64,000 nucleotides of DNA from Octopus vulgaris. Lineage: Eukaryota. The DNA lies in assembly GCA_951406725.2 (NCBI GenBank), contig OX597815.1, positions 166,346,001 through 166,410,000 on the forward strand, written 5' to 3'. A program made the position numbers and the translations under genes. Shown here piece by piece: positions 7,154 to 64,000 of this stretch (its first letter is position 1; each line of letters starts with the position of its first letter). The notes below the pieces were generated by a model that was not told the origin of the DNA, did not search any database, and was given only the letters and a program-made list of their open reading frames with translations.

Positions 7154-7777
7154 TTATGTGTCTGTGTGTGAGTATATATATATATAAATATATATCCTTT
7201 TCTATTTTTTCTTTTACTTGTTTCAGTCATTTGACTGCAGCTATGCTGGAGCACCGCCTTAAAGTGTTATAGTCGAAGAAATCGACCACAGGACTTATTC
7301 TTTGTTAGCTTAATATGTATTCTATCGCTCTCTTCTCGAACCGCCAAATTGCGGGGACGCAAACGCACCAACACCGGTTGTTAATCCGTGGCGGGAGATA
7401 CACATACACATATATCGCCTCAGAAAAGTCTCCGTCACATCCATGCCAGTACGGAGAAACAGACGTAAGACAGAAATCAACTGTAAATATGTACCCTGGG
7501 GTAAAACAATTTAGTAATGTACGCTGTGATCAGTAAAACTGCAAAATAAACGCCAATGAGTTTAACTTGAGCGGGTACACCGTAGGGCTTCTGTTAAACT
7601 CATTATCTCAACGGTCCAATTAGTTATGTGGCTTAATATTGATGTAATGTATCTCTTTCATCCGATATGTCTATCTGTCTGTCTATCTCTCTGTCAGTCA
7701 ATCTATATCTCTGCCTGCCTCTTTGTCTGTCTGCTTGTCTGTCTGTCAGTTTATGTATGTATAGATCTATCTATCTA

Positions 7778-8310
7778 TCTAGCGAATGTTTTAAAAAAAG
7801 ATGGGTGAATGTAGCAAGGATGGCACGTATGAATGACGAAGCCACCTTGAGCATAATCCTATGAACCCAGAAATTGAAAACAGAGGGTTACCCACTTGCA
7901 AACAAATGTGGTAACATATAACAATATTGACCAAGGTTACCGTGGTCTTTTTCGTAGGCTTTTCTTCCCACGGATAAACCTTACTTGCTTTCCCCTTTAC
8001 ACCATATATCATAACACTGTGATACACGATTCCTATTGATCATTTTTTTTCCTCTTCCCCCTTTTTTCTTCTTTTTTCATTTCTCTTTCCTTTTGTTCCT
8101 TTTCCTTTTCTTTTTTTTCCTTTTATTCCTTTTATTTTATTCAAATTTTTTTTTTGTTCTTTTCTTCCCTTTTACGATCCCTCTTGATCGAAAACCTACG
8201 CCACCCCTTTTTTATTCTTTTGTTTTTTGTTCTCTTCATCCCCCAAAAGAAAAGCTCTACCTTGTAACTTGTCCCATCTGTGTGCAGCCCTGTGTGGCCA
8301 ATAAAGAAAC
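7778..8310 (+). mobile_element. Tx1/L1-clade LINE, heavily 5'-truncated copy (last ORF2 codons + 3' UTR)
   Basis: Encodes [23 protein letters not shown], as in the longer copy; T-rich 3' UTR ending CAGCCCTGTGTGGCCAATAAAGAAAC; flanked by (TCTA)n on both sides. Confidence 0.85.
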
Positions 8311-8396
<86 letters not shown>

Positions 8397-8436
8397 CTCT
8401 CTCTATCTGTCTGTCTATCCATCTGTCTGTCTATCC

Positions 8437-8495
<59 letters not shown>

Positions 8496-8604
8496 GATCT
8501 ATCCATCCACGCATCTATCCATCCGTCCATCCATCCATCCATCCATCCATCCATCCATCCATCCATCCATCAATCCATCCATCCGTCCGTCTGTACATCT
8601 ATCG

Positions 8605-8636
<32 letters not shown>
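8311..8636. repeat. (TCTA)n/(TCCA)n compound microsatellite between the two LINE copies
   Basis: Direct reading. Confidence 0.95.
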
Positions 8637-8639
<3 letters not shown>

Positions 8640-9173
8640 GGCCCGGGACCTATGGACAACTTCCAGAGATCCCTGGCCTGGCGGTGCTACCGAGAAGCGC
8701 TACCCGTTCGGGATAAGCTCTATAGGCATGGCTCGAGAAACACGGGGCCGACCTGCCCGAGATGCGGGCAGAGCGACGAAACCGCTCTGCACGCAATCGT
8801 GCAGTGTCCAGCAATTTCCGACCTGTGGGCTTATGTCGAACGACTGCTGTCACGTGTGGGACGTGTCGGTTTATCAGCCGAGTCTATCGTTAATATCGTC
8901 ACGCCTCCTTCTTTCAAACGGGAAGGAAGAGCTATTTTTATCATACTTGTGGCTATGGCGAAAGAATGTATCTGGTGGACGCGCCTGAAAGGATTAGAGA
9001 CAAACACTTTCCTCTCTGGTCAATCTCTCATCAACTTCTTCAAGTATCACTTGAAGAGGAAAGTGAGAGTAGAGAGGCAAGTTTTGTCTAGTGAATGTTT
9101 TAAAAAAAGATGGGTGAATGTAGCAAGGATGGCACGTATGAATGACGAAGCCACCTTGACTATGATTCTATGA
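8637..9173 (+). pseudogene. LINE ORF2 C-terminal fragment with RT-associated zinc-binding (zf-RVT-type) domain
   Basis: [16 protein letters not shown]...[18 protein letters not shown]...LW...AKECIWWTR: CxxC-ET-xxH-xxxC and IWxxR motifs typical of L1/Tx1 ORF2. Confidence 0.85.
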
Positions 9174-9534
9174 ACCATAAAAATTAATACAGAGAGTTGC
9201 TTATTTGCAAAAAAAAAAAAAAGAAATATAACATGTGACTTCATTGACTGAGGTTACCGTGGTCTTTTCCGTAGGCTTTTCTTTCCACGGGTAAACCTCA
9301 CCTGTCCTCCCCTTTACACTTCATATTGACATTTCTGTGATAACGATCCCTATTATTCATTTTTTTCTCTCCCCCCCTTTTTTAACCCCTCCCCTTTTTT
9401 TTGTCCTTTTTCTTTCCTTTTACGATCCCTTTTGATCGAAAACCACCACTCTCCTTTTTTTTACCCCCAAAAGAAAAGCTCTACCTTGTAATTTGTTCTA
9501 TCTGTGTGCAGCCCTGTGTGGCTAATAAAGAAAC
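8637..9534 (+). mobile_element. Tx1/L1-clade LINE, 5'-truncated, ORF2 C-terminus + 3' UTR
   Basis: Open frame to stop at 9173 and the same 3' end as 7778-8310; embedded in (TCTA)n. Confidence 0.9.
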
Positions 9535-9535
9535 A

Positions 9536-9590
<55 letters not shown>

Positions 9591-11694: not shown

Positions 11695-12196
11695 CAGATA
11701 TATGTTTTGCTTAAAAGCAATGCATAGTACCGGAATTTTCGCCTTCAGTCAAGTACAATAAACAACTCCGAATCGTTGTTAGATTAACCGCGTTCTGAGT
11801 TCAAATTCCGCTGAGATTGACTTTAACTTTCATCCTTTTGAAGTCGTTGAAATAAGTACCATTTGAGCACTGGGTTTGATGTAACCGATTTAACCGCTGC
11901 TCTGAAATTGCTGGCTTTGTGCCAAAATTTGAAGCTAATATTATTGGCTCGAGGCTCGAAGAAGAAGAACAAATGATCAAGTATAAGTTATAGAGTGAAA
12001 GTATCGTCCTGTGTCGGATACAAAATGAAAAGACGAAGGAAGAGTGAAAAGTAAGAGAGGAAAAAACACGAGAAAATGTCAGAGAAATAGGAGTGAGCCA
12101 GGGAAAAAATGTACGCGGATGACTTACATGCTCGTTCTCTGATTAACCCGGAAGTGTAATTGAGAGGTAATTGTTGTTTTAATAGCAAGAGATCAC

Positions 12197-12810
12197 AAGG
12201 CGGCGAGCTGGCAGAAACGTTAGCACGCCGGGCGAAATGCGTAGCCGTATTTCGTCTGCCGGTACGTTCTGAGTTCAAATTCCGCGCAGATCGACTTTGC
12301 CTTTCATCTTTTCGAGGTCGGTAAATTAAGTACCAGCTACACACTGGGGTCGATGTAATCGACTTAATCCGTTCGTCTGTCCTTGTTTGTCCTCTCTATG
12401 TGTAGCCCCTTGTGGGCAGTAAAGAAATAGGTATTTCGTCTACAGCTACGTTGTGAGTTCAAATTCCGCCGAGGTCGACTTTACCTTTCATCCTTTCGAG
12501 GTCGATTAAATAAGTACCAGTTACGTACTTGGGTCGATATAATCGACTTAATCCGTTTGTCTGTCCTTGTTTGTTCCCTCTGTGTGTAGCCCCTTGTGGG
12601 CAGTAAAGAAATAAGAAACGTTAGCACGGCGGGCGAAATGCTTAGCAGTATTTCGTCTGTCTTTATGTTCTGGGTTCAAATTCCGCCGAGGTCGACTTTG
12701 CCTTTCATCCTTTCAGGGTCAATAAATTAAGTTGTAGTTACGTATTGGGGTGATCTAATCGACTGGCCCCCTCCCCCAAAATTTCGGGCCTTCTGCCTAG
12801 AGAAGAAAAT
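12197..12810 (+). mobile_element. SINE family A trimeric array (two Tx1-like tails, terminal alternative tail)
   Basis: Three body repeats; array flanked by 16-bp TSD AATAG(C/T)AAGAGATCAC (12181-12196, 12811-12826). Confidence 0.9.
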
Positions 12811-13276
12811 AATAGTAAGAGATCACTCGTTTGTATGCGTGTATATGTAAATATGTGCGTGTGATTGCGCGCGTACGCGTAATTGTACGCGTGTGTATAG
12901 CGTATATGCATATATGTGTGTGTGTATTTGTGTATGTACGTGTATTTGTTGTAGGTACCGGATACTTGGCTGGTGAGATTAACAGTGTGTGTGCGCGCGC
13001 GCGTGCTTGTATCTACTGTATGTGTATGTATACGTGAGTTTGTGTGTATGTTGATGTAGGATATATATGTGTGCGTATGTGTAAGAACATGTACGTGGCC
13101 GTAGTCGAGGCGTGTTCAACCGGTACACCAGTCTGAGGTCCGAAATGCCAAAGTAGACTGATGACTGTTTGAGGAGGCCATTCCTTACGAATAAAAAAAT
13201 GTGACAAAACCCTTGAAATTTTATAGACACTCCGCTTATTTCGATTGGTACTTAAAACTCTGTCTTCTACCAAATC

Positions 13277-29269: not shown

Positions 29270-30250
29270 GCTTTAATCGTTAGCAGGTGGAGTAAATGCA
29301 TAGTAGAATTTGGTCCGTCTACAAATTCGAGTTCAAATTCCGCGGAGGTCAAGTTTGCTTTTCATTCTTTTAGGGTTGGTTGATAAAACAAGTACCAGTT
29401 GAACACTGGGGTTGATGTAATCGACTTACCACTGCCCCAGAAATTATTGGTCTCGTGCCAAAATTTGGAACCAATATTATGTCTTTATGTTAAAAGCGGC
29501 GAGCTGGCAGAAGCGTTAGCACGCCGGGCGAAATGTTTAGCAATATTTCGTCTGTCTTACGTTCTGAGTTCAAATTCCGCCGAGGTCGACTTCGCCTTTC
29601 ATCCTTTCGGGGTCGATTAAATAAGTACTAGTTACGCACTGGGGTCGATATAATCGACTTAATCCGTTTGTCTGTCCTTGTTTGTCCCCTCTATGTTTAG
29701 CCCCTTGTGGGTAATAAAGAAATAGGTATTTCGTCTGCGGTTACGTTCTGAGTTCAAATTCCACCGAGGTCGACTTTACCTTCCATCCTTTCGGGGTCGA
29801 TTAAATAAGTACCAGTTACGCACTGGAGTCGATGTAATCAATTTAATCCGTTTGTCTGTCCTTGTTTGTTATCTCTGTATTTAGCCCCTTGTAGGTAGTA
29901 AAGAAATAGGTATTTCGTCTGTGTTTACGTTCTGAGTTCAAATTCCGCCGAGGTCGACTTTGCTTTTCATCCTTTCGGAGTCGATAAATTAAGTACCATT
30001 TGCGTACTGGGGTCGATCTATCCGACTGACCCCCTCCCCAAAAATTGTGCCTAGAGTAGAAAAGAATCGTTAGCACGCTGAGCAAAATGCTTTACGGCAT
30101 TTTACGTCCGTCTTTATATTCTGAGTTCCAATTCCTGTGACGTCGACTTTACCTTTCATCCTTTCGGTGTTGAGCACTAGAGTTGATATTATCGACTTAT
30201 CGGTTTTCCCGGCAATTGTTGGCCTTTTGTCAAAATTGGAAACCACTACA
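29270..30250 (+). mobile_element. Cluster of SINE family A copies including a trimeric array (29495-30062) followed by a head-truncated copy
   Basis: Repeated TTCTGAGTTCAAATTCCGCCGAGGTCGACTTTGCCTTTCATCC units. Confidence 0.9.
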
Positions 30251-31499: not shown

Positions 31500-32460
31500 C
31501 GCGCCTCCTTTAAGAACACGATAGGATGTGGTCTGAGCGACACTTAATTGCTATTTCTAGCAAAGTGATCAACAAATAAAATACTCTCTCGTTTTCTTGT
31601 TCTAGATTATTAATTATTAATTAGCTGCGATATTTGCAGCAGTTATTTAGCCCCAGGTCAGTCCAGATTGAGCTGATAAATGATGAGAGGCACTCCAACC
31701 GTGACCACGCCATATTTTTCTTAAATGTGCAAGGAAACCCAAGGTTGTATTATCCAGTATGATATTTCCTAAATGATTAGGGTGTGATTTTAAAAACATT
31801 TGGCTGCGGCTTCTAGCTGACTGATGGACCTTGTTTTCATATGCTCAAGGAAACCCAAGGACGAGATTATATAACGTGTCCGCATCTCCCTTTTAAGACC
31901 CGGTAGGGAGTGATTTGAGGGACATTTGGCTGCTGTTTCTAACAAGGCGATCAACCACATAAAATACACTTCCGTTTGCCTATATTAGATTATTAATTAC
32001 TTGTGAAATTTACTGCAGATATTTAGCCACAGGTCAGTCCTGATTGAATGGATAAATGACGAGAAGCAGTCCAACCGTGACCATCCTACCTTCTTAAATG
32101 TCCAGTATGATATATTCTTATTTTCTCAGGCGGCGAGCTGGGAGAAACGTTAGCGCGCCGGGCGAAATGCTTAGCGGTATTTCGTCTGTCGCTACGGTCT
32201 GAGTTCAAATTCCGCCGATGTCGACTTTGCCTCTCATCCTTTCGGGGTCGATAAATTAAGTACCAGTTACGCACTGGGGTCGATATAATCGACTTAATCC
32301 CTTTGTCTGTCCTTGTTTGTCCTCTCTATGTTTAGCCCCTTGTGGGTAGTAAAGAAATATATATTCTTATTTTCTAAGTAATTAGGGTGTAATTTTAGAA
32401 ACATTTGGCTGCGATTTCTAGCAGACTGAAGGACCACGTTCAGGCTCCCTCGGTGACTCG
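31500..32460 (+). repeat. Cluster of an older dispersed repeat (family E); related copies at ~28935, 30413, 30830, 36350, 45250, 48235, 55735, 61500
   Basis: Recurring TTTAGCCCCAGGTCAG...CCGTGACCATCC and GATTTGGCTGCTATTTCTAGCAG motifs. Confidence 0.6.
32127..32358 (+). mobile_element. SINE family A monomer with Tx1-like tail
   Basis: 17-bp TSD ATATATTCTTATTTTCT (32110-32126, 32359-32375). Confidence 0.9.
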
Positions 32461-35308: not shown

Positions 35309-35689
35309 ATAAGTTTAAGTGCAATAGTTAATTTAGTGGCCTTTTAATCTGGATTGGTTTATAAGTAAACTCTGTGTGTGCATGCTCGTGTGTTTTTGTT
35401 CATGAGTGTGTTAAAAGCAAATTTAAGTGTTTTTATTCAGCAGGTCGTGTCGCTATTTAAAATAGGCTCTGGTCTTCCAAGACCCTCGTTGGCTTGTACA
35501 ATTTTGCTCAGATAAGGACTTCAGTAGAATGCAAAAGGATTAAAAGACATTATTTAGCCCAAATCCCAAATAGTAAAAAAAACTAATTCTGACATTTCTC
35601 TGCATTTCACTCGAGAATAAATTAGTAAAATACGTACAAGTAGACGCTCTGTGATACCCAATCGACCTCACTGTTACTTGATAAAATAA

Positions 35690-35714
35690 AATAATAATAA
35701 TAATAATAATGATG

Positions 35715-35767
<53 letters not shown>

Positions 35768-35951
35768 CCTTTCTACTAAAGGCACAAGGCCTGAAATTTT
35801 GGAGGAGGGGACTAGACGATTAAATCGACTCGTGTTTTCATTGGTACTTAATTTGTCGACCCCGAAAGGATGAAATGCAAAATCGACCTTGGCGGAAATT
35901 GAACTCTGACGGGCGAAATACTGCTAAGCATTTCGTCCAGCCGTAACTGAT

Positions 35952-35996
<45 letters not shown>

Positions 35997-36222
35997 CCTT
36001 TCTACGATAGGCACAAGGCATCGGAGATTTTTTTGGGGAAAGGATTAAGTCGATTATATCGATCCCATTGTTTAACTGGTACTTGACTCATCAACCCCGA
36101 AAAGATGAAAAGCAATGTCGACCTCGGTGGAATTTGAACTCAGAATGGTTGTCGACGGACGAAATACCGCTAAGCATTTCGTTCAGCGTGCTAACGATTC
36201 TTTCTGACAGCTCGCCGCCTTA
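35690..36222 (-). mobile_element. Two SINE family A copies with (AAT)n tails
   Basis: Reverse complement of family A; (AAT)n tracts at 35690-35767 and 35953-35996. Confidence 0.8.
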
Positions 36223-37517
36223 ATAATAATAATAATAATATTAATGATCTTTGGTCCTGGTGTTCATAAGAAATTACTGCTTCGTAAAGAAATCCATGAA
36301 CATTGCACAATATTGTGCATATATTATCTTTGTTTCCGCCCAAGGGGAATAGATTCAGCAAGAAAAACTTCTACACAGTCGGTCATAGCTGCCAAATTTT
36401 CCTCAAGTCACATCCTACAGTCTTAAAAAAATTTGAAGAACACTTTCGTTAGTATAGGCTTAGATGCATTAGAATGGAGTGGGGATGGAGAAACAAACAA
36501 ACAACAAACGGGATGGTCATGATTAGATTTCCGTTGATCACACGTCTGTCTATTCGGTCAGTAGTGTAGACAATGGCTTTAAAAGCTCCGTGTGAGGTGA
36601 GCTTACGCGACATGGCTTCGATCCACGGGTGAAAAAAATTTCATTTCTTTTGAGACGCTAATGACCTATTATTTTTTCTTCCATCTTAAAATCACAGATG
36701 CACAGGCATGGCACGGCATGGTTGCGTGGTAAGAAGTTTGTTTCTAAATCGCATGGTTTTGGGTTCAGTCCCGCTACATGGCACCTTGTGCAAGTGTTTT
36801 CCTTTAGACGAGTGGTTGGTTCCCAGACGGGGTCCATATCACCCTTGGGGTAAGGGGATGCCCATGTAAGATTTTGTTGCTAAAATCTATGTGCAATAAA
36901 GTGGTTAAGTTATATACTTCTACGTTACTTAAAGTATTTTAACGTATTCAAATTAAAAAAAAACAATTCCCAGTAATACTTAACAGGATTTTGTTAAGCA
37001 TCGAATGGCTATGAAGGTTCATCCGAATAGCAAAGCCTTGTGAGTGGAATTTGGTTGACGGAAACAGAAACACAAACGTGTGTGTGTGTGTATGTGTGTG
37101 TTCGTGCGCGCGATATGTGCGTCTGTGTGTTTGTATTTGTGTCTGCTCGAACACCATTTGACATTCGGAGTTGGTTTGTTTACGCCTCCGCAACTTAGCG
37201 GTTCTACAACAAAGACCGACAGAACAATTACCAAACTGGGTACTGGGATTGATTTATTCGACTGACATCTTTCAAGACGATGCCCCAGCTTGACTGCAAT
37301 CCAGTGACTGAAACAAATAAAAGATAAATAAAATAGTGCTCTATGCCTGATGAAACTACGCCCACACATACTTCTTTGACAGTCCGAACAATTGATGGAA
37401 ATGCCTGAGCTAAGTCCCAAATTCTTGATATTTAAATTCCTTTTCCTCAGCAATGAAGTTCACAATCTACAAGAGTGTTGGTAAAATCTTATTACAGTCA
37501 AATAGAGTAGAGTTAAG

Positions 37518-37925
37518 ACGACGTACTGGCAGAAACGTTAGCACGCTGGGCGAAATGCTTAGTGGTATTTCGACTGTCTTATGTTCGGAGTTCAAATTCC
37601 GCCGAGGACGACTTTGCCTTTCACGGTCGATTAAATAAGTACCAGTTACGCAATGGATTCAATATAATCGACTTAATCCATTTGTCTGTCCTTGTTTGTC
37701 CCCTCCGTGTTTAGCCCCTTGTGGGTAGTAAAGAAATAGGTATTTCAACTGCCTTATGTTCTGAGTTCAAATTCCGCCGAGGTCGACTTTGCCTTTCATC
37801 CTTACGGGGTCGATAAATTAAGGGCAATCTGCCAAATTAAGTATCAGTTGCGTACTGGTGTCGATCTAGTCAATTGCACCCCCTCCCACCAAAAAAATTT
37901 CTGGCCTTGTGCCTAGAGTAGAAGA
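37518..37925 (+). mobile_element. SINE family A dimeric array
   Basis: Unit with Tx1-like tail joined at AAAGAAATA|GGTATTTC to a unit with the alternative tail. Confidence 0.85.
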
Positions 37926-40865: not shown

Positions 40866-41226
40866 AAAATATAATGAAATAGAGTGTACACACACACACA
40901 CACACACACACACAACACACACACACACACGTATTATATAATGTCAAAGTATTATATAATATATCAATTTATACACATGAACTTGTATGCATAGGCGTAT
41001 GGCACACAGTCTTCCAATATATCCTTGTACATATCTATATGTTATCTTACAACTTTGTTTCACATTTTGAGAAAAATATTATGGGTGTGGAGTGTTCCTT
41101 AACAGGTTAGAAAACTTCACTTAAAAAGTTTTTTGTCTTCCAACTTGAGAGATTTTATATGAACTCGCGACACCAACACCACGTACATTTTCTTTTCTTC
41201 TATTTTTCAGTTTCATTATTATTATT

Positions 41227-41261
<35 letters not shown>

Positions 41262-41267
41262 TATATA

Positions 41268-41700
41268 AGGCGGGCGAGCTGGCAGAATCGTTAAGCACGC
41301 TGGACGAAATGCTTAGCGGTATTTTGCTAGTTGCTACGTTCTGAGTTCAGATTCCGCCGAAGTCGACTTTGCCTTTCATCCTTTTAGGGGTCGATAAATT
41401 AAGTACCACTTGCGTACTGGGATCGATCTAATCGATTGACCCGAACCCCCACCAAATTTCAGGCCTTGTGCCTATAGCATTACTATATAAGGCGGCGAGC
41501 TGACAGAGTTGTTAGCACGCCGGGCAAAATGCGTAGCAGCGTTTCGTCCGTTCCTACGTCCTTAGTTCAAATTCCACCGGGGTCGACTTTACCTTTCCTC
41601 CTTTTGGGTCCGATGAAATAAGTACCAGTTGCGTGCTGGGTCGATGTACTTGACTTGTCCCCTCCCCCAAATTTCAGGTCTTGTGCTCGTAGCAGAGTAA

Positions 41701-41730
<30 letters not shown>
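41268..41730 (+). mobile_element. Two adjacent SINE family A copies
   Basis: Heads at 41268 and 41488; (ATT)n tail. Confidence 0.85.
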
Positions 41731-41733
<3 letters not shown>

Positions 41734-42412
41734 TTTAAAAATATTTGTTAGCTGGCGTGGCTGTCTCGTTTAAGAAGCTTGCTTCTCAACCCTTTGGCCT
41801 AGGGTTCAATATCACCCTCTGATATGTCATCCACTGTAGCCACAGGTTTGTGAGTGGATTTTGTGGACGGAAACTAAAAGAAGCCATCCCCCCCATCATT
41901 TGACAACAGATGTTGGTTTGTCTACGTCCCTCGTAACCTAACCTTTTGCAGATCTGATGTTCCACCCAGACCTTGAAGATGGTAACCAAGCTTGGTCGCA
42001 CTCCAGTGAGTGAATCAAGTAAACTTTGAAATATTATCTTTCTTTTACTCTCCCCACCACCAACAACAACAAACGGTAGTATGGTGGTTATGAGATGGTG
42101 AATCTATGGTTCCATAGAAATCAAATCCCTCTCAATAAACTTCCCACTGCCTTAAATGAGGGGCCAATAAAGGGCACGATATTAGCATCTTGAAAGCCAG
42201 TCATGCCACGATATATACATAGATACATACATACATACATACATACATACACACACACATACATACATACATACATACATACATACGTACAAACATACAT
42301 ACATACATAGAGAGAAAGAGCGAGAGAGATATACTCATATATGTATGGATATTCATATATATACACTAAAAAAAATGTGTTTTTATGTCAAGTTATATAT
42401 AGAAGCAATATA

Positions 42413-63169: not shown

Positions 63170-64000
63170 TCCCTTCTGCTATCATAAGCACAAAGCCTGA
63201 AATTCGGCAGAGTGGTGTCTTGTCGATTATGTCGACCCAATGCTCAACTGGCACTTATTTCATCGATCCCAAGTGGATGAAGGGCAAAGTCAATCTCAGC
63301 GAAACTTGAATAATAACAATAATAATAATAATAATAGTAATTATGATAATAATAATAATGATGGTTTCAAGTTTTGCCACAAGGGCTGCAATTTTGGGAG
63401 AGGGGATGGGTCGATTGCATCGATCTCATTGTTCAACTGGTGCTTATTTTATCGACTCCGAAAGGACAAGTCGACTTCGGCAGAATTTGAACTCAGAAAG
63501 TAGCGACAGACGAAATGCCGCTAAGCATTTCGTCCAGCGCGCAAAAGATTCTGCCAGCTCACCGCCTTAATAACAACAATAATAATAATAATTCTTTCTG
63601 CTATAGGCACAAAGTCTGATATTTTGGAAGAGGGGACTAGTCGATTACATCAATTCCAGTGCTTAACTGGTATTTATTTCAATGACCTCGATAAAAGGTA
63701 AAGTCGACATTGACAGAATTTGAACTCAGAACATAAAACCGGAAGAAATGCCCATAAGCACTTTGTCTGACGCGGTAACGAATCTGTCAGCTCAGCACCT
63801 TGACCTTTTCAAGAGAAAAATGAAAACGTTTTTGATTATAATATAAAGGTAGCGAGCTGGCAGAATCGTTAGCACGTTGTGGGGAAACTGCTTAGCGGTA
63901 TTTCGTCCGTCTTTACATTCTGAGTTCAAATTCTGCCGAGGTCAACTTTGCCTTTCATCCTTTCGGTGTCGATAAAATAAGTACCAGTCGACTACTGGTA
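63170..64000. mobile_element. Four SINE family A copies (three -, last + and cut by the window edge)
   Basis: Family A motifs with (AAT)n tails. Confidence 0.8.

Follow-up and report, generated by a model that had tools for sequence, protein, structure and literature searches.

The window, that is, the whole 64,000-nucleotide stretch of octopus DNA analysed here from a genome of 2.8 Gb, carries three arrays and a free copy of a short interspersed element (SINE), in which a single head and body are common to a young subfamily, tail-1, and two older ones, tail-2 and tail-3. When tested for the features of a SINE, the element proved to be short (a monomer of 232 bp), high-copy (68,216 exact tail-1 ends genome-wide) and flanked by target-site duplications (24 of 44 monomers). 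In its numbering, position 1 is the first A of AGGCGG, which in the monomer lies at 32128, and tail-1 occurs in two variants at position 220, T220 and C220. ARAGORN found zero tRNAs in the window, the SINE head included, and the monomer had no tRNA match in Rfam; A- and B-box-like motifs were spotted in the head by eye only, against a consensus. The family resembles octopus SINEs and may, we presume, be among OK, OR1 and OR2, which were reportedly described by Ohshima and Okada in 1994 as tRNA-derived. Full-length tail-2 and tail-3 copies are also clustered in (ATT)n or AT-rich tracts of the window (35686–36252, 41207–41745 and 63187–63998), and these three clusters contain no head junctions. 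The features are as follows.

8637–9536, + strand: L1/Tx1-type LINE, 3′ part (zf-RVT), ending like tail-1, then (ATCT)n
12180–12196, + strand: left outer target-site duplication, 17 bp, one mismatch to 12810–12826
12197–12429, + strand: 12.2-kb array, unit 1, full head, body and tail-1 (C220 variant)
12430–12613, + strand: 12.2-kb array, unit 2, head position 49 to tail-1 (C220 variant)
12614–12809, + strand: 12.2-kb array, unit 3, head position 16 to tail-2
12810–12826, + strand: right outer target-site duplication
29493–29724, + strand: 29.5-kb array, unit 1, full head, body and tail-1
29725–29908, + strand: 29.5-kb array, unit 2, position 49 to tail-1
29909–30062, + strand: 29.5-kb array, unit 3, position 49 to tail-2
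30063–30245, + strand: 29.5-kb array, unit 4, position 16 to tail-3, oldest subfamily, 11.1% diverged
32110–32375, + strand: free tail-1 monomer (32127–32358) with its 17-bp duplication
37515–37738, + strand: 37.5-kb array, unit 1, head, body and tail-1
37739–37925, + strand: 37.5-kb array, unit 2, position 49 to tail-2

An earlier note on this DNA had described three arrays with six junctions, all of which are present. Four of the junctions lead from tail-1 to position 49 (12429/12430, 29724/29725, 29908/29909 and 37738/37739) and one from tail-1 to position 16 (12613/12614). The sixth, 30062/30063, breaks the layout of a head, repeated body and tail-1, and a final body and tail-2 that had been assigned to every array, because here tail-2, not tail-1, enters position 16 of an older tail-3 copy. 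The monomer does possess its own 17-bp duplication, as had been claimed (32110–32126 and 32359–32375, the first A being common to the duplication and the tail), and the outer duplication of the 12.2-kb array exists, at 17 bp with one mismatch instead of the 16 bp reported. Divergence rises unit by unit in the 29.5-kb array (2.7, 4.0, 6.7 and 11.1%), is flat across the 12.2-kb array (6.7, 5.3 and 6.7%) and is reversed in the 37.5-kb array (9.0% in the first unit vs 1.9% in the last, which is partial). Judged by the genome sample presented below, unit 3 of the 12.2-kb array is likely the remainder of a host SINE. Part of the stretch is contained in 20 of 24 listed sequencing runs; four runs, swamped by other SINE copies, gave no contig across the array and no empty orthologous site, only the left flank-to-head joint of the array, which is present under two other organism labels.

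The preference for one base of the head extends far beyond the window. In a genome-wide pattern search, 23,743 of the 68,216 exact tail-1 ends run into GGTATTTC, which is head position 49, and 657 continue as AGAAWCGT, which is head position 16, with 0 matches to the reversed control patterns. Both of the fixed head sites proposed from the window are thus used, albeit unequally, position 49 being the main site and position 16 a minor one; tail-2 enters position 16 in 110 of 19,533 cases, which we treat as a minor by-product. When the first 100 exact tail-1 ends were aligned, 54 led to position 49, 2 to other positions and 0 to position 16, and 44 failed the alignment rule. Of 36 tail matches in 59 random 10-kb stretches (590 kb), 12 lead to position 49, 2 to position 16 and 3 to other positions, and 19 have no SINE after them. 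We also counted per element. Most loci of this sample were picked around exact tail-1 matches towards the start of one chromosome, a choice that favours elements of several units; 20 random stretches and the window complete it. Of its 130 tail-1 elements, 29 have their end at position 49 of a unit other than tail-1 and 2 at position 16, 4 end otherwise and 95 end in non-SINE DNA (58 single, 37 multiple). Position-49 sites amount to 6e-5 of strand positions (71 in 1.18 million strand-bases) and to at most 7.8% of GGTAT sites (71/906), so that 29/130 exceeds even the expectation from the motif alone (p = 2e-7). The bases past tail-1, a tally of which had been put forward as a check, are therefore non-random, yet most elements of the sample end outside SINEs.

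Comparison of ages on 75 shared non-CpG columns indicates that the units on the two sides of such junctions differ in origin. The last units of tail-2 arrays (6.1% diverged, n = 36) and of tail-3 arrays (12.8%, n = 6) are close to free monomers of the same subfamilies (7.3%, n = 25, and 13.7%, n = 30, respectively), whereas the tail-1 units preceding these old end units are 2.0%–3.6% diverged. Of the 36 tail-2 arrays, 23 have a last unit older than their first and 6 show the reverse (p = 3e-4); among tail-3 arrays, 6/6 have the older unit last. Mutations common to end units are no more frequent than among unrelated monomers (108/2058 vs 61/1022 and 9/115 vs 288/3638), which implies that the end units are independent hosts. 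By contrast, in the 42 arrays that end in tail-1, first and last units do not differ in age (18 vs 15, p = 0.39). The age gradient anticipated between inner and outer units accordingly exists in the genome sample and in the 29.5-kb array and is missing from the other two arrays of the window.

Insertion can be observed directly where the target is followed at once by the 5′ end of a new copy. A search for such visible joints returned 33 exact matches genome-wide, and 17 of the 30 loci examined have a host head or an earlier junction, a duplication, a full-length new copy, the duplication again and the rest of the host; of these 17 clear loci at position 49, 11 involve a host head and 6 an earlier junction. 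The other 13 comprise 9 without tail-1 at the expected place and 4 without a duplication. The duplications measure about 15–17 bp by eye, or 11–21 bp under the loose rule of the script. For position 16, there are 4 exact matches, 3 of which were examined: two have a clear duplication, one of them (L336) with a dimer between the duplications, and the third is weaker. Together with the age gap and the independent hosts, these duplications bear out the proposal that new SINE copies inserted into older heads.

Visible joints are rare, 33 exact matches against 23,743 exact junctions, and the first units of the arrays suggest where the rest have gone. Across the 7 arrays whose hosts are oldest, first units differ at only 2 of 202 sites at positions 16–64, compared with 65 of 522 in free tail-3 copies; in addition, an outer duplication frames 24 of 36 tail-2 arrays (shuffled pairs: 3 of 300) and is above threshold in 1 of 6 tail-3 arrays. 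Young-looking first units within a duplication that encloses the whole array imply that the host head has been replaced by a young one. Most insertions thus likely conceal their 5′ joint through homologous replacement of the host head, and the earlier suggestion that 5′ ends join by homology is mostly right. At three loci (L212, L231 and L232), the 65-bp head-plus-duplication repeat that a visible insertion leaves occurs in tandem copies, an indication that this repeat is unstable.

The same base is occupied by a LINE. At one locus (L305), a LINE related to that of the window sits at position 49 with a duplication. A pattern search with the LINE tail gave 104 matches; among the 100 listed, 81 end in AAATT (LINE-type), 17 in AAATA and 2 otherwise, and 78 of the 81 LINE-type tails run into the SINE site when counted by eye. 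At 10 loci checked, 7/7 AAATT ends belonged to the LINE and 3/3 AAATA ends to the SINE. All four 5′ ends of the site-sharing LINE follow SINE head positions up to 64. With 78/81 listed tails and 4/4 5′ ends, the LINE exceeds the threshold for specificity of over 20% of flanks at one target given in the part of PMC4494074 drawn on here. The SINE shares this target at 22% (29/130, insertions into tail-1 hosts left out), and its insertion uses the base of the LINE with a similar duplication length. None of the LINE copies looked at was seen at position 16, so that of the two head positions at which a Tx1 LINE had been expected, only the main one is occupied in these copies. ORF2 is open over 1134 aa in a full-length copy; it encodes Exo_endo_phos, RVT_1 and zf-RVT domains and is 56% identical to the ORF2 of a family associated with (ATCT)n, for which the best PDB matches are human L1 ORF2. 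Their domain layout suggests that these LINEs are of the Tx1 type.

The LINE tail matches tail-1 in 37 of 48 columns. Intact copies of the site-sharing LINE are 98%–100% alike and hence younger than the tail-1 burst; to judge from sequence likeness, only older LINE subfamilies (82%–88%) could have been contemporaries of that burst. The heads that house the young copies have C at position 49, a minority SINE variant (4/4 5′ ends, L316–L319), and C at this position is also found in about 50 of the 81 listed 3′ ends, by eye.

Two other L1/Tx1-type families have tails similar to tail-1. The closest tail (82%–92% over 34–47 nt) is that of a sister family, none of whose 15 3′ ends lies at the SINE (16 copies were fetched, 1 without a tail). 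On several contigs (L320–L335), 8 of these 15 ends precede one repeated sequence and 3 another, and some copies seem to be stacked at a spacing of about 5.25 kb. The window LINE at 8637–9536 belongs to the (ATCT)n family, not to the family found at the SINE head; its family tail is 76%–90% like tail-1 over 42 nt, and we rejected this family as the site-specific enzyme, since 0 of 30 young loci are at the SINE. Many of its genome copies have an open ORF2 of 1152 aa, and at 7775–9536 the window shows two 3′ ends of a very young LINE, stacked one behind the other, with ATCT repeats after them. A pattern search for a carrier LINE with the exact tail gave 4 matches, all of the (ATCT)n family, and no LINE lay upstream of 284 tail-1 ends. 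With three LINE families of similar tails, the LINE at position 49 is a putative carrier of the SINE. For tail-2, a young R4/Dong-like LINE was considered as carrier and is not supported, its tail being different and followed by (TAA)n, on the strand opposite to the (ATT)n of the SINE. At L284:4912-7280 lies a very young RT-encoding LINE, presumably of the R4/Dong type, with (TAA)n after it; its 150 scored matches are all 100% identical over 200 aa.

A fixed site, a consistent order of ages in tail-2- and tail-3-ending arrays, duplications of 15–17 bp at visible 5′ joints and a LINE at the very base of position 49 are joined in one reading, to which we assign a probability of about 75%: young tail-1 SINEs inserted at position 49 of older SINEs of their own family, likely by target-primed reverse transcription with an endonuclease of an L1/Tx1-type LINE lineage that uses this base. 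The endonuclease would nick the SINE head between positions 48 and 49, and target-primed reverse transcription would insert a new tail-1 copy at the nick. The new cDNA would usually pair with the near-identical host head and replace it; alternatively, the 65-bp head-plus-duplication repeat may collapse later. Either course would leave a clean layout framed by the old duplication of the host. Transcripts running past tail-1 into GGUAUUUC could aid priming, and such read-through priming may also account for the minor site at position 16. From two units on, local unequal exchange adds or removes units, as shared private mutations and one paralogous pair show, and further insertions reuse the junction. 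The proposal that a Tx1-type enzyme cuts SINE heads thus gains from the LINE at the position-49 base and is tempered by the tail-1 elements in non-SINE DNA: the SINE is far less site-specific than the LINE (95/130 outside SINEs, against 78/81 listed LINE tails at the site). In the same way, the SINE does act as both passenger and target at position 49, but as a leaky passenger whose long arrays grow by recombination.

The contribution of recombination is considerable. Private mutations common to adjacent tail-1 units amount to 62 of 176 (35%), compared with 203 of 7095 (2.9%) for random pairs, and the sharing is greater in arrays of three or more units (55/134, 41%) than in dimers (17%); moreover, L162 and L168, which are paralogues, are one unit apart in length. 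It follows that long arrays have grown, for the most part, by local duplication of a junction that insertion had made first. A few loci, such as L157 (11 units), L151 (7) and L129 (6), reach the four or more homogenised middle units by which SINE-derived satellites are defined; the three window arrays do not. Unequal crossing-over, named in the earlier note as a process that might explain the junctions, accounts for much of how arrays lengthen past two units, and one may ask whether it, or ectopic gene conversion, alone spread a rare founder junction into old SINEs without targeted insertion. We consider this very improbable: neither process can yield a host head followed by a duplication and a full-length new copy, as at 17 of 30 visible-joint loci, a LINE at the identical base, or duplications that start with GGTAT in non-SINE DNA. 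As the origin of first junctions this explanation is refuted; for later growth it stands. A further alternative is that multimeric masters were copied whole, the junctions having arisen once or a few times. Multimers make up 37 of the 95 elements that end in tail-1 in non-SINE DNA, 28 of the 42 tail-1-ending arrays have fresh duplications, these arrays lack the first/last age gap, and the L336 dimer lies between duplications at position 16, so that whole-multimer copying likely contributes to tail-1-ending arrays. As the general source of the junctions it is improbable, given that old end units are mutually independent and older than the units preceding them, and that single full-length copies with duplications exist at the site. 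Tail-2- and tail-3-ending arrays have neither the equal unit ages nor the derived mutations common to end units that define a complex SINE from one master, and for these arrays the single-master origin raised in the earlier note is ruled out as the main source.

The flanks outside SINEs bear on how the site is chosen. At these 3′ flanks, TAT occupies positions 3–5 in 52 of 103 cases, against a background of 5%, and GG often precedes TAT in both copies of the duplication. Flanks that start with G follow 41 of 64 T220 tails and 5 of 34 C220 tails (p = 2e-6), and position-16 junctions are mostly C220 (25/29); T220 thus goes with G-start flanks and position 49, and C220 with A/T-start flanks and position 16. 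It is possible, if doubtful, that targeting is led by RNA, with a loosely specific endonuclease (preference NN-TAT) nicking widely and read-through SINE RNA selecting the sites with which it can pair; the junction would then be inherited from master to daughter, and for the LINE at position 49, read-through RNA of its own would do the steering. Besides the TAT motif and the co-variation of tail variant and flank, this explanation can draw on a tail-1 consensus without any run of four T and on the proposal of such an RNA influence for RTE retroposons in the part of PMC6007223 drawn on here. Against it, the likeness of non-SINE sites to the read-through sequence fades after 5–6 bases, and mismatches between duplication copies, a directional test of RNA templating, have no clear bias towards the RNA (6 vs 3). 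Furthermore, C220 copies are older than T220 copies (3.9 vs 2.7%, p = 0.001), so that a change of carriers over time may equally explain the co-variation.

Among the known systems, as far as the parts of the cited papers drawn on here describe them, the closest is that of Tx1-Mar LINEs and SINEU in crocodilians, which have a common insertion site in the abundant repeat Mariner-N4_AMi (Kojima 2015, PMC4494074). As in that system, a Tx1-type LINE and a SINE have a common site, there are two hot regions, and tandem SINE insertions occur around the duplication; unlike it, where the target is a third element, the octopus SINE targets its own family, and the common head of insert and target hides most of the 5′ joints. 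Sequence-specific insertion by the Tx1 clade into a multicopy target also characterizes Tx1L in Tx1D of Xenopus, Keno in U2 genes and Kibi and Koshi in microsatellites, the last two being paralleled by the octopus family associated with (ATCT)n; for these four, the same part of PMC4494074 describes no passenger that doubles as the target. Cotranscription with the target is said there to strengthen targeting. As in RTE-related SINEs (Nishiyama and Ohshima 2018, PMC6007223), the 3′ end of the RNA is correlated with the bases that open the duplication; unlike in those SINEs, 39 octopus sites have no T stretch about 10 bases upstream, nor any other upstream motif, and the tail resembles those of L1/Tx1-type LINEs. 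In squamate SINE-derived satellites (PMC10702118) and bivalve tandem SINEs (PMC11481361), the arrays are ascribed to unequal recombination; these likewise consist of head-to-tail units and are more uniform when long, whereas in octopus the first junction comes from targeted insertion at a fixed base and recombination is second. The consulted portion of an octopus repeat annotation (PMC13282606) lists active L1-Tx1 families and does not describe SINE self-targeting, of which the portions of PMC3531059, PMC4824008, PMC4758252 and PMC5786205 covered here contain no account either. Our literature search found no description of this SINE/LINE system; Repbase, subscription papers or supplements might contain one.

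The octopus system is well supported as a target-specific LINE–SINE system aimed at the SINE's own family, with the SINE as passenger and target at the scale of tens of thousands of junctions. It shows how insertion can seed SINE arrays and satellites before recombination takes over. The sister LINE families, whose ORF2 are 56% identical and whose targets differ, offer a natural series for separating the shares of endonuclease and RNA pairing in target choice, which bears on tools for site-specific gene insertion. The ages and subfamilies of these SINEs are mosaics, which calls for caution in the dating of repeats in these genomes. More speculatively, and in our estimate somewhat unlikely, the two elements may form a closed selfish loop, in which the SINE passenger would multiply the only landing site of the LINE, self-insertions would renew decayed heads (and with them the promoter), and read-through RNA would pass on the choice of target, the preference being partly inherited with the flank instead of residing in the enzyme alone.

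Two minor observations concern the sequence around the junction. A 13-bp hairpin is predicted at 32159–32188 of the window (SINE positions 32–61), with an unremarkable fold stability (z = −1.69) and with position 49 as the first base past the loop. The end of tail-1, GAAATA, is complementary to TATTTC directly past the junction.
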